A stretch of DNA of 64,000 bases from Eledone cirrhosa (Eukaryota): contig OZ024750.1 of assembly GCA_964016885.1 (NCBI GenBank), positions 13,206,001-13,270,000 on the forward strand. Reading direction: 5' to 3'. Made by a program: the position numbers and the translations under genes. Shown piece by piece: positions 13,201 through 19,200 of the stretch. The notes below the pieces were generated by a model, which did no database searches, was not told the DNA's origin, and saw nothing but the letters and a program-made list of their open reading frames with translations. The stretch's first letter is position 1. The number at the start of each line of letters is the position of its first letter.

Positions 13201-16200
13201 AGGTTTCACATACAAACAAAATATTAATTCAAACATTTTAAATATTACAGTTAAGATTTGTTAAATTATTTTAAAAGATTTAGATATTATAAAAGAAAGA
13301 AAAGAATATTTATAAGAGGAATATTAATTAAGATAGATAAGAAATGAATAAAAAGAATTCATTCAGGGGTGTAATAATGTCAGTTCTAATGCTGAAATGT
13401 TGCATAGAGTTTAATATATTACGATATTCTGTTTAGTCAAATTTGACCTTTATATGTTAAGGATTCTGTTATTTGATAAACAGAATGCAATTTATTAATG
13501 CAACTTTGCATTAAACTAATATTAAAAGGGTGGAATGATGTTATAGTTATGGATTCAAGAAGAGGAGGGAAACCTGCTTAAGGGATGAAAATAGCATGTT
13601 TCAACAAGATGGATTTTTTTTTATGTTAATTAAGGATCATACAAAATTTTTTTTTTTAGCATGAGTAGCACTAACATCTAGATCCATCACAATATGAAAC
13701 AAACCTCATTATATCCACTTGATCAACAATTTTGAGTACAGCGCTTCCTATCTCAGAAGCATAGCTAATCTGTTGTACTGGTCCTTCTTCCTGAATTTCA
13801 TAGCTGTTGTTGGAAGAAAGATATTTGCTATCATAAATAATTACATTCTCAACTAAATATTTATTAATTTAACATGCTTTCCATTGATTAGATGATATGT
13901 TTATACTGACTTCAACAACTATTTCTATTTGATTTTGAAAAGTTACAAAAAGATTTATAATAAAATAATAATGTTCTGACTAATGCATATATTTATTAAA
14001 AGGTTAACATCTTAATAGTGTTTTATTTTGTAATGTCATGTATAAAAATAAATGTGTATAAATGAGGAAAACAAACAGATTAATAAATGGACATAATGTA
14101 TTTATTATAAATAAAACGTAATCTACAAAGTATGAATAATGACTTAAAATTATAAATTAAATCCCTAATGATTTACACTGAAACCATCAATATCTAAATG
14201 TTGACAAAATATTTTTATATTGATTTGTAACTACATCAACATGCATGTGTAATAAACTGCTTATGAACCTTGGTGGGGAATCTCCACGAGGCATTGTTGG
14301 TTCGGCTGGAACTGGAATAGGAACTTTAACAGGAGCTTTAACAGGTTTCACTGTTTTGGCTGGTGAAATTAAGTTCTCCTGAACTGGTGGTACAGGTCTT
14401 GGTATAAATTCTGGTTTAGGTTGTACTCTTGGCAGTGTTGCTGGTGGAGGAAGTGGTTTGCCAGATAAATCAAATATCAATTTTGCTTCTGCTACAGATG
14501 GAGCTTTGAATAAAGTTTCCTCATCAGTAGGCTTGCCATCAACTGTTGCTTCAGTTGTTGGAACAACTGCTGGTGCACAAACTGCGATCTGATCTCTAGG
14601 AGGTGGTATCTGCTCTCTGTGAAGTATGGTGGATATATTGAATAAAATATTATGTTATTTTATAAGAAAGGAATTTATAAAAAGAAAAATTAATCGTTTT
14701 TCCTTTCAAATTAAATAGAATAATTAAAAGTTATTAAAGTAACCTTTAAAAAAATAGGTATTTAGAAATCAATTTAATACATATGCATTGCTCATCTCAA
14801 TGCCATATTTCTGCAAAGGAGTACTAACAGCATAATCATTTGTAATTTAAAAGAAATAATAAAAGGAGTTTGTAGTATCATATAATAGCATCATGTAATG
14901 TTTCTTTTTTTTTATCACAGTGCTACAGTGAATACATGGCATAAATGTAGACAATAGTCTTGGTCAAAATTATCAATAGTAAGACTTTAAATGAGATTTA
15001 CTTGCTGACTATTAGCTAATTCACAAGATAGAAATACTAATACTTGAAATAACATAGAATACTCAGTAAATACTAGAGCAATAAGATAAATGACATTCAA
15101 ACATTTTAACAATAGACATTGAAAGTCATTTCAGAATTTAAAATGTTCTTTAAAATATAATCAATGCATGCATGCTTCAAGTTTCAACATAAAAGCAAAC
15201 ATGCTACAAATCTAAGATTCTTCACTTTTCTTCTTAATTCTCTGCTAATATTAGTAAGAATTAAATATATTCATAGTTACTCCCGCCGTTTACCCACACT
15301 TGGTAGAATTTCTTCACTTTGACATTCAGAGCACTGGGCAGAAATCACATCGTGTATGTGGCTCGGCCAGCTATGTGATGCTCTGTTTTAATTAGACAGT
15401 CGGATTTCCCCAGTCTATACCAGTTCCAAATCGACCGTATGCTGCTGGCCGAATGCCTGCCATGTGTCATGGCAACCCCGCCGCTGGGAAGCAGATGGAG
15501 GAAAATAAGACACGCCAATGAGTCCAAAGCCATGTTGCTCAGCTGTTCATATATTATTGCCAAATAAAATTTGTATTATATTTTACTGTTTCGACCTGGT
15601 ATACATGTGTGTGTGACTGATTTATTTATCTGGTTTTACTATCCCAGTATTTTCATATTCTCCTAATACTAATTTAATTCTGTAAATATACACAATCGTA
15701 ATTATCAAAGTGAGGAATCACAAAACTAAGAGTGAAAAAATTGCCAAAAAGCACCAAACGTAAGTTTCTCATTGATGATTTTGCTCTATTTATGGACTAA
15801 AAGAAATAAATACAAATAATCAGAGAGGTTCTGAGATTAAGTAATTAATTCATAAACAGAGGTTAGTTCAATTCCCCATTATTGATCTTTTTTTCTTGAA
15901 AATTCCTCGGGTACACAAGTTCAACAACAGAAAAATATCAAAATTTAGCAATGTTTTGCTACTATGCCTAAAAAACAGAAAATAATGTTAAATCTAAAAC
16001 ATTTCACACTGAAACATGGATGCCAAATGCTATAAGGCACTATATTTGTTTTAGTGCGGTCACTCTTCGAAGACCAAATATTTTAGTAAATTTGATAAAT
16101 AAACAAATAAAAGAAAGAAAAAACATAAAAAGCTGTTGATAAATAGTTAATTGGCACATAAACTTTGTACAATATGAACAATAATCACAAACTGTAAGCC

Positions 16201-19200
16201 AAGAATTGTTAAGATTGTCAAAGATTTTTTAAAAATGAGCCAAAATACTTTTTAAACTGTTCATACATAAATTAATAAATAATTAAGTAAGCTTATAAAG
16301 ACAATGTTAAGCTATCTTCTCTATAAAACATCCAGCAAAAGGAATTTTAACAACAAAATGTATTAGTTTCATATGTGTGTTACTAACTTAGTGTATGACG
16401 CTGTTAACTAGAATTTGTAGCATCAGTCTTGAGTTGTAAATTAATCAAATATAAATTAAATATTTCTTCCACTTTACCAGACAATGGATATTATCCAGTC
16501 ATATAAACAAATTGTATTATCCAAATTTCTCTGCCAGATTCTACAATTTGAATCTAATGTATTCTAAACTAAATTTTGCATATACACAAATGCTGATTTC
16601 TAAAGCAGTGTCATGTTGAATAGATCATTGCAATTGGAATCAAGTCTTATTTGGGTCACTACTCTTTAGAGTGATCCAGGCCCAAGTGTCAGTTAAATGT
16701 TCCATAAAATATTACTAAATATTAAAACATTAAAAGAAAATAATATCCATACTACTGAATTCCATGAACAGTTGAAAAGAATTTCAACTGTTTTAGAATT
16801 ATTTAGAATTATTCTGTAACTCTAATCTTAAAACCATATAACAGAATTAACTTTGTTGAAAGGAAAAATATTCAACCCTTTAGCATTTAAACTGGCCATA
16901 TCCGGCCAGAATTCTCTCACCCTTTTCTGTTTATATCGGCTGTAACTGGGTACTCATACTGATATTAAGGTATTGTTCTCAAAATAAATAATATCAAAAT
17001 TTCATAGATTCGATATTATGTGAGATAAAGCCTTTACTGTGAATAGTAAATATAGAGTAATGTAAATGCTAAAGGGTTAATAGAGAAACCAATAGTAATT
17101 AAATTATTTTAAAGTTTGTATTAAGAAATGAAAATAAACTGGAAGTATATTTGCTAGATTAACATGTTTAAAATGTTTAAGACTGGCTCATTTTTCCTAT
17201 AACTATCTATAAAACAACAAATCACAAAATACAAACATTCATCTATATAAACTGAAATAAATTCCTATGTAAAACATTTTGTTAGCCTTCTACTTTATAA
17301 TATCTAACTACATCTAATGTCTAGCTTCAGTCTAGTATTCACAGACCTGGGTTTTTTAAGTATCTTTTTGTGTTTGACTTTAACCACACCCGACTCAACT
17401 TCTGAAGCATAACCTATTTGCTGCACAAGACCCTCGTCTTGTAGTTCATAAGTACTAATAAAAATGGAAAACAAAAATATATTTCATTTATGTATTTAAC
17501 AAAAAAGACAAAAACAATAGGATGCCAATAATTGTTAGTAGAGTATTAACTATTATTAGTCTATATTTAAAACAGTCTAACTATAATTTCAATAGCCCTC
17601 TTTTATGGATTCATTTTTATGAGAAGAAGCAGAAGAAAGAGAGTGAGAAGGGGAAACAAATCGTGTTTTCCTCTAATATATTTTCTCATTTTTTTGAGAC
17701 TATATAAACTCAATAAAACAGCTTCAAACTCATATTTGAAATAATGTTCTGAAATGTTTAAAGACGCCATTAATATAACTTTCCCCACAATTAATGCAAG
17801 TAATTAAAACACAAATATGTCATTGTGTATTTTAATTCACAATTTATACTGTGGTAAAACAGAAACAGTAGCAAATATAGAAACTGAAATAAATAAGTCA
17901 ACACAAAAAAAAAAAACTGCTTAAACTTAAAAAAAAAGCTTTCAGGCATGAAAAGTAAATGAAGAAATGAAATTAAATAAAGCATTAAAAAACTTAAAAT
18001 ACTAAAACTCTACTATAAAAAATTAACTGATGAGAAAAAAAAATTATTAAATAAAATGACTCATATATTACTTCTTTTTAAATTTAATAAACATGATGTA
18101 AATCTTGTAAATGAAAGTTTTAGGTAGGGAAATGACCCCAACAATTTAAATAGAATATAATTATTCCAGAATATGTTTTAAACTGCTTTATAATGCATGT
18201 CTGCACTCATATCTTTTCATTAATTAATCATAATTATTATTCTCTTATAAATTGATTTCATGAGTCATTTTATTTATGTGATACAAATGATGCCGAACAA
18301 AATGTTTTGTTTATAACTGGAAACAACATTCCCAACTAAATATACAATTCGAACCTTCTGAGAGGATCTTCTCTCAAAAGACGTAGAGTTGCACTGTCAT
18401 GTTCTGTGGCATAAGAAATTTGTTGAACAGGACCAATTGGTTGGATCTCGTATTTGCTAAATGGAAGAATATTAATAATTAACTTTCTCTATAATATATT
18501 CTATTTTAAACATTTTCAAAAATTGCTGTATCTATTTTCAAAGAAACTATTTATAAATTTAGGATGAAATTCCTTCCAACTATAAAACTCCAAGTGATAT
18601 TTTCTCACTTCTGATACATTTAGATTGTATTCCCTCAAATATAATGGAACAGATTAAACAAGAATATTTTGAACAAAGTATCTTAAACATAATATAATTA
18701 TCCACAATCTATCATTTGATGAAATAACAACAGATTGATCAAATGATCATTTCTTTCACTTTAATGACAAAGAGAAGAGAATATAATAGAAATATAGACC
18801 AATAATTTATACAATATGTCCAGATAACAATAAAAATATAAACTAGATAATGATGAAAAATCAAATTAGAAACGAAACAAATGTAATTAAATTTTACTTA
18901 AGTATAATACTGAGAAGGAAATTATTTAGTTAATAACCTAAATTGAAAAAATGGTTTAATTGGAAAGAAATATTTTTCTTAAACTGAAAATTAATGAATA
19001 CCCAAAGAAATGTTTCTGTTATTATGTAATAAAATGATTATTTTTTTAATTAAGGATCATACTAAAAGTAAATTAAACCTCCAGCACAGAAAATCTTGAA
19101 CAGAGAATATAACAATGCTGATGATGATAATAACTATATGATCTTTATCAATTTAGTATATGGTTTAGAAATTCTTAATGGTGGAAAAATAACATTAATT

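Follow-up and report, generated by a model that had tools for sequence, protein, structure and literature searches.

A repeat encoded by three small exons of the octopus titin gene and its possible role as a splice-tuned docking module

A stretch of 64,000 nucleotides (nt) from the octopus Eledone cirrhosa (GenBank assembly GCA_964016885.1, contig OZ024750.1, positions 13,206,001 to 13,270,000 of the forward strand; hereafter the window, with positions counted from its first letter) carries the 5' portion of a giant gene of the titin family. Three micro-exons of this gene each encode a copy of a 26-amino acid (aa) repeat core. In this study, we found the repeat in the titin of other molluscs as well, at the corresponding position. 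It is a real, conserved repeat family of mollusc titin that is apparently undescribed within the open-access literature searched. On balance, we favour the view that the exons form a splice-tuned, multivalent docking block, in which independent cassettes would each contribute a small beta-meander that docks a Z-disc partner. So far, the repeat is a motif within a known gene, and the mechanism is predicted.

Three repeat exons and their relatives in other molluscs

The repeat exons lie on the minus strand at 18355-18456 (exon 1, 102 nt), 17347-17454 (exon 2, 108 nt) and 13705-13803 (exon 3, 99 nt). All have AG acceptors and GT donors, are of phase 2-2 and have lengths that are multiples of 3, and when the donor is skipped the frame runs into a stop 5-16 codons past the junction codon. 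An earlier reading of this DNA from its letters (the sequence-only reading) had given the positions, peptides, phases and short read-through stops of these exons correctly. Its statement that none of them is in the list of open reading frames did not hold for copies 1 and 3, which appear as 50- and 65-aa stop-to-stop frames when short frames are listed. With a single copy as the query, the other two scored 60-85, while the highest background score among about 128,000 six-frame positions was 23-25; the mutual similarity of the copies is far beyond chance. The pairs of copies share 12, 17 and 16 of 25 aa and 39, 40 and 46 of 75 nt, and the identical residues use different codons in 7/12, 14/17 and 11/16 cases (32/45 over the three pairs). 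Such amino acid identity with mostly different codons is consistent with ancient duplicates that selection has maintained at the protein level. These results support the claim, already made in the sequence-only reading, that the repeat exons are real coding exons under purifying selection.

A protein search of the 3.0-Gb genome with copy 3, performed once, returned three matches from three candidates, which were the three known copies. A hidden Markov model (HMM) built from these copies found only the same three in the window and 200 kb downstream, and no fourth copy was detected there at E<1 with either this or a deeper HMM. The repeat occurs at the same position, after a triplet of immunoglobulin (Ig) domains, in four molluscs, namely the octopus, Haliotis rubra (XP_046554796.1, 3 copies), Mytilus galloprovincialis (VDI56857.1, 4 copies) and Pinctada imbricata (KAK3083136.1, 3 copies). 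The order repeat-repeat-Pro-rich-repeat is common to octopus and Haliotis, and the spacing of copies ranges from 34 to >200 aa, with copies adjacent at 34-36 aa in places. A record of O. bimaculoides contains the exon 3 frame nearly letter for letter, annotated there as an orphan protein of 71 aa. When 1.84 billion representatives were searched with a profile, which was diluted to 295 positions, 44 matches were obtained, 42 of them with the repeat, and most of these relatives are single-exon frames with intron-like flanks; the word-based searches covered 75-2000, 1137-3245 and 1700-5411 aa. The two matches without the repeat, a bacterial giant repeat protein (P0009) and a neighbouring Pro-rich exon (P0041), were dropped, and one cluster member, P0081, was unrelated.

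Gly7, Val9, Gln10, Ile12 and Tyr14 were invariant in 36 aligned copies, and the mean core identity was 66%, compared to 6% for the read-through tails (30 fragments). A tree was built from 51 distinct cores of 56 copies over 26 columns, with rough support. One clade (support 96/83) unites the first copies from octopus, Haliotis, Mytilus and Pinctada, which suggests that two or more copies were present before cephalopods, gastropods and bivalves diverged. Exon 1 is accordingly of the copy-1 type, and exon 2 is the most divergent copy, with a basic tail and an end branch of 0.59. A divergent subtype (P0006, P0042, P0044 and P0045) has W/M/L at position 1 and M/L at position 11 and is possibly from another lineage; P0006 has three copies of it within a single frame. 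A second repeat family, with units of roughly 40 aa in which a PPW core is followed by Thr/Val-rich strands, was seen downstream of repeat 4 in the same linker of two Mytilus isoforms (P0058 and P0059) and in fragment P0029; it was not noticed in the window.

The motif had been called unrecognised in the sequence-only reading, and this was borne out. Pfam gave no family for any of the three exons, and no family matched more than one of the 36 members. Profile searches of PDB chains gave no significant match; the best (E=0.19) fell on a hairpin in ribosomal protein S8 and was treated as chance. No description of the repeat was found by motif string or by topic within open-access papers. Compared with known systems, the repeat is not a Z-repeat, by sequence is not telethonin, and is not a kettin Ig-spacer unit. 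Kettin is likewise built of repeated units in an invertebrate titin, but its actin- and actinin-binding Ig-plus-spacer repeats, as they are described in PMC3207145, are about 130 aa long and each has an Ig domain, whereas the mollusc repeat has 26 aa and no Ig.

Splicing, predicted structure and neighbouring motifs

Among eight isoform models of M. galloprovincialis, six contain 4 copies, one contains 3 and one contains 0. All eight continue past the repeats, and the copies are always internal. The 0-copy model drops the whole block. In the Mytilus gene models, the copies are co-included cassette exons that are neither mutually exclusive nor terminal. The sequence-only reading was thus right that copy number varies, as it differs between species and between the Mytilus models (0/3/4). 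Mutual exclusivity, which it had also raised, is not supported, as the models of Haliotis and Pinctada and 7/8 of those of Mytilus each include 3 or 4 copies. A search of sequencing runs listed four that contain the octopus sequence, and no RNA run was among them. Scallop fast and catch muscles are reported to be enriched in different titin isoforms (PMC5963113), which by analogy may give a physiological setting for a splice-tuned block.

The donors of the three exons read gttcga, gtctgt and gtttgt. A pyrimidine at +3 was present in 3/3 repeat exons, compared to 5/24 resolved upstream junctions (24/37 junctions resolved; Fisher p=0.019), in agreement with the weak donors proposed in the sequence-only reading. 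We also inspected 41 homologous fragments, leaving out P0006 because it has three copies in one frame. None of the 41 ends at the exon-final Arg, as a GTAA, GTGA or GTAG donor would force, and 31/41 would still reach 49 aa if they did. Of the 37 fragments with an inferable donor, 31 imply a pyrimidine at +3 (GTY). The weak, non-canonical donors therefore look conserved at the sequence level.

AlphaFold predicted a hairpin for the repeat alone (36 rows; strands 10-15 and 20-25), with a mean predicted local distance difference test score (pLDDT) of 71 and a predicted template modelling (TM) score (pTM) of 0.30. In the whole Haliotis protein (15 rows), copy 1 was modelled as a hairpin and copy 3 as a three-strand meander with pLDDT 63-72, and the linker was mostly below 50. 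All fragments went to copy 1 in the sister alignment. The repeat is thus predicted to be a beta-hairpin or three-strand meander, with strands at about residues 1-4, 9-15 and 20-26. Judging by how the conserved residues alternate, Tyr1, Ile3, Gln10, Ile12, Tyr14, Leu23 and Leu/Ile25 would form one conserved hydrophobic face, which is too exposed for a lone 26-mer, so the repeat would be expected to fold or stabilise on binding. Foldseek with the 32-aa model against the PDB gave 36 matches at E<=10 and none at E<=0.001, and in the ESM Atlas there was no feature match and all structure rows were at TM<0.5. A self-pairing prediction for two copies of repeat 3, performed on the single sequence without an alignment, scored 0.03 against a mark of 0.32 and is evidence neither way.

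The Pro-rich cassette exon at 14269-14616 (minus strand, 348 nt, phase 2-2), which ends in SPP directly before repeat 3, encodes SV-x-[ED]-A-[KR]-x-x-F-[ED] in octopus, Haliotis, Mytilus, Pinctada and P0041. The consensus of the short F-actin-binding motif (SFM) is given as VxxLxxxFE (PMC13364712). Val at P1, Phe at P8 and Glu/Asp at P9 were present in 5/5 sequences that include the exon, and the segment is modelled as a helix in Haliotis (AlphaFold); this helix comes from a neighbouring exon and not from the repeat. It is lost together with the copies in the 0-copy Mytilus model. Ser-Pro was found within four residues before Tyr1 in 7/10 copies of the three named models (Haliotis, Mytilus and Pinctada).

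Possible roles of the repeat

In the docking reading that we favour, the repeat exons would be spliced in as independent cassettes, each repeat would dock a partner of the Z-disc or dense body by adding to the partner's beta-sheet, and splicing would set the number of docking sites per titin. The cassette block would also carry the F-actin-binding-like helix, and most copies would have Ser-Pro sites directly ahead of them. A titin of the long form would serve as an anchor for actin plus a partner that could be tuned by phosphorylation, and one of the short form would be missing both. Our leading guess for the partner, offered as a long shot, is the C-terminal Ig repeats of filamin, because binding between titin and filamin has been reported for fly and human (PMC5521747) and the ligands of filamin are described as adding a beta-strand at the CD face (PMC10164935). 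These ligands, which include integrin tails, migfilin and LARP4, add a short beta-strand to an Ig edge, as the mollusc repeat would; they differ in being single strands, whereas the repeat is a repeated unit with two to three predicted strands. Other possible partners are LIM or PDZ proteins and the Ig edges of titin itself. As a separate observation, the genome has a filamin gene with many Ig repeats at C11:40.49-40.54 Mb, further filamin-type loci on C9 and C11, and actinin-like EF exons on C6.

Several points weigh against this reading. The Z-disc location is deduced from homology. The second strand fits the filamin-ligand pattern only partly, because a conserved Arg/Lys stands between its hydrophobic residues. 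The confidence of the structure is moderate, as the pTM indicates, and Haliotis copy 2 is unstructured (pLDDT under 50), probably because it had too few aligned rows. The isoforms of Mytilus come from deposited gene models in which read support is not visible, and none is from octopus; 7/8 of them keep three or four copies, so the variation may be modest. The donors of the fragments were deduced with a pattern that requires Arg and then F/L/S/W/Y/C, and gene callers are biased towards longer frames. The tree was built on just 26 columns, and its bootstrap support was not yet stable. In the neighbouring helix, Ala stands at P4 where the SFM consensus has Leu (PMC13364712).

Other roles were weighed on the same evidence. 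Telethonin has beta-hairpins, as the repeat is predicted to have. Telethonin (T-cap, PF09470) is described as gluing titin Z1Z2 (PMC2799012), and the repeats may be a built-in stand-in for this glue, cross-linking titins by binding to one another or to Ig domains of titin itself. We consider this doubtful. It would agree with the predicted one-faced beta-sheet, with copies that can adjoin at 34-36 aa, with the Z1Z2-like pair kept in the gene and with the blank Telethonin search of the octopus genome, which was weak and had no positive control scored. However, telethonin is a separate protein with no sequence match to the repeat: neither profile matched telethonin in the PDB at E<=10, and its family profile matched none of the 36 members. 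The wide copy spacing and the existence of a 0-copy model also argue against cross-linking. The titin Z-repeat is a helical ligand of alpha-actinin EF3-4, and we regard it as quite unlikely that each mollusc copy binds these EF hands as a helix. The analogy with vertebrate Z-repeats (Titin_Z, PF09042), drawn in the sequence-only reading, stands in part, since both are short repeats near the titin N-terminus that are spliced and variable in number, for the mollusc repeat in the Mytilus models. In favour of binding to alpha-actinin are also its EF3-4 exons, which are present in the genome, and a blank Titin_Z search of the genome, although this search was as weak as the Telethonin search and likewise had no control scored. 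Beyond this, the analogy is not supported, with differences in length, position and predicted fold. Vertebrate Z-repeats have 45 residues and follow directly after Z1Z2, with their number varied by splicing (PMC2799012), whereas the mollusc repeats lie five Ig domains beyond the Z2-like domain, and the free 26-aa core, with its invariant Gly and mostly Pro at the first turn, is predicted to be all-beta. The Titin_Z profile matched 0/3 exons and 0/36 members.

The sequence-only reading had also suggested that each exon can be a last exon, in which read-through and intronic polyadenylation would give short palladin- or novex-3-like titin isoforms. This is rather doubtful. In Haliotis, the RefSeq model extends four residues into the copy 3 read-through and stops there, but this model is probably truncated, and neither the Pinctada model nor any of the 8 Mytilus models ends at a repeat. 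Three fragments run on into a longer exon. The non-canonical donors, which look conserved, would suit read-through; however, the tails are hardly alike while the cores are conserved, so the 'R-F-V' that they share (R-F/L/S-V) is donor sequence read as protein. AATAAA lies within 500 nt of 2/3 exons, but also in 71/127 background windows, and the poly(A) scan was uninformative. It is also unlikely that the repeat is mainly a signalling site, at which the splice junction would make a PPxY ligand for WW domains or a proline-directed phospho-switch presented by the beta structure. PPxY spans the junction in 5/10 copies of the three named models, probably also in octopus copy 3, and is lost in the 0-copy Mytilus model, whereas the Haliotis copies have SPxY or nothing, and the most conserved residues are 7-14 and not the N-terminal motif. 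A role as elastic or spacer elements without a partner would suit their place in PEVK-like disordered sequence, but it is very improbable, given five invariant positions and a core conserved across copies while the flanks diverge. The dynein light chain LC8 motif was set aside, as there is no TQT-like anchor.

The docking reading can be extended, with little probability in our view, to the idea that molluscs evolved their own titin anchor code, in which splice-counted beta-meanders would zip onto the Ig edges of titin or filamin beside an actin-binding helix. Its premise is that no Z-repeat or telethonin was detected in the genome by the weak searches described above. Titin in molluscan muscles is anchored at sites that include Z-discs at one end of the range and dense bodies at the other, and the code, if true, would set the architecture of Z-discs or dense bodies in cross-striated, obliquely striated and catch muscles. 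Titin anchoring in molluscan muscles has been little studied. A small, conserved, splice-switchable module could be expressed as bait, and fast, oblique and catch muscle could be compared for its copy number. The repeat also marks an annotation gap, seen in the orphan protein of O. bimaculoides, the Haliotis model that ends in read-through and the lack of a Pfam family.

Host gene and linker

In the window, spectrin-type exons are followed by I-set Ig exons, and the gene is colinear with Mytilus titin from Mytilus residue 37 up to the repeats. All exons of the gene described here are on the minus strand. The N-terminal spectrin-repeat exons (36692-57604, SESTD1/CCDC141-like) belong to the same gene. 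A Z1Z2-like Ig pair lies at 27572-28986, and its second Ig (27572-27949) is Z2-like, with 89 bits to titin Z2 compared to 44 to Z1. The Ig triplet exons directly upstream of the repeats (20220-24201) are palladin/myotilin-like and colinear with Mytilus and Haliotis; their PDB matches include palladin and myotilin Ig domains, among many Ig matches. In the numbering of titin domains, we take the triplet to be titin Z5-Z7 and the Ig after the linker to be kettin-type or Z8. Huge PEVK-like exons and Ig/Fn3-like arrays follow downstream of the window. By its sequence, the host gene is a spectrin-Ig titin with the SESTD1-CCDC141-titin layout described as 'connectitin' (fly zormin/Sallimus) in PMC12198301, sharing with it the spectrin repeats, the Ig domains including Z1Z2, the PEVK-like giant exons and the Ig/Fn3 arrays. 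The passages of PMC12198301 on domain architecture and phylogeny do not describe the linker repeat.

The repeats sit in a disordered Pro-rich linker between the Ig triplet and the next Ig, which is composed of one phase 1-2 exon and six consecutive symmetric phase 2-2 exons with lengths in multiples of 3. The first linker exon after the triplet (19512-19584, phase 1-2) has a canonical gtaagt donor and, across what is probably the junction, ends in Ser-Pro before repeat 1. Besides the repeat exons and the Pro-rich cassette exon, the linker contains a candidate PEVK-like micro-exon at 7127-7183 (57 nt, phase 2-2) and a Pro/Lys-rich exon at 1052-1243 (192 nt, phase 2-2). Only one Ig that we take to be kettin-type follows the linker (L004:5157-7708); the gene is in this respect closer to vertebrate titin than to the 35-unit fly kettin.

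Directly after the Z2-like Ig, a Pro-rich exon at 26590-27171 has repeated Ser-Pro-Ile-Arg motifs and no Pfam match; to us, these motifs recall the proline-kinase sites of the first Z-disc insertion of vertebrate titin. Further downstream (L005-L017; C10 about 13.07-13.19 Mb), there are exons of very large size that are rich in E/T/V/K and contain long tandem repeats; one of these exons is open across a full 10-kb stretch, and together they are likely the elastic region of octopus titin. Within the window, the intron downstream of repeat 3 contains a 24-bp tandem repeat (5074-5291, 9.1 copies, 97% match), which yields spurious open frames.

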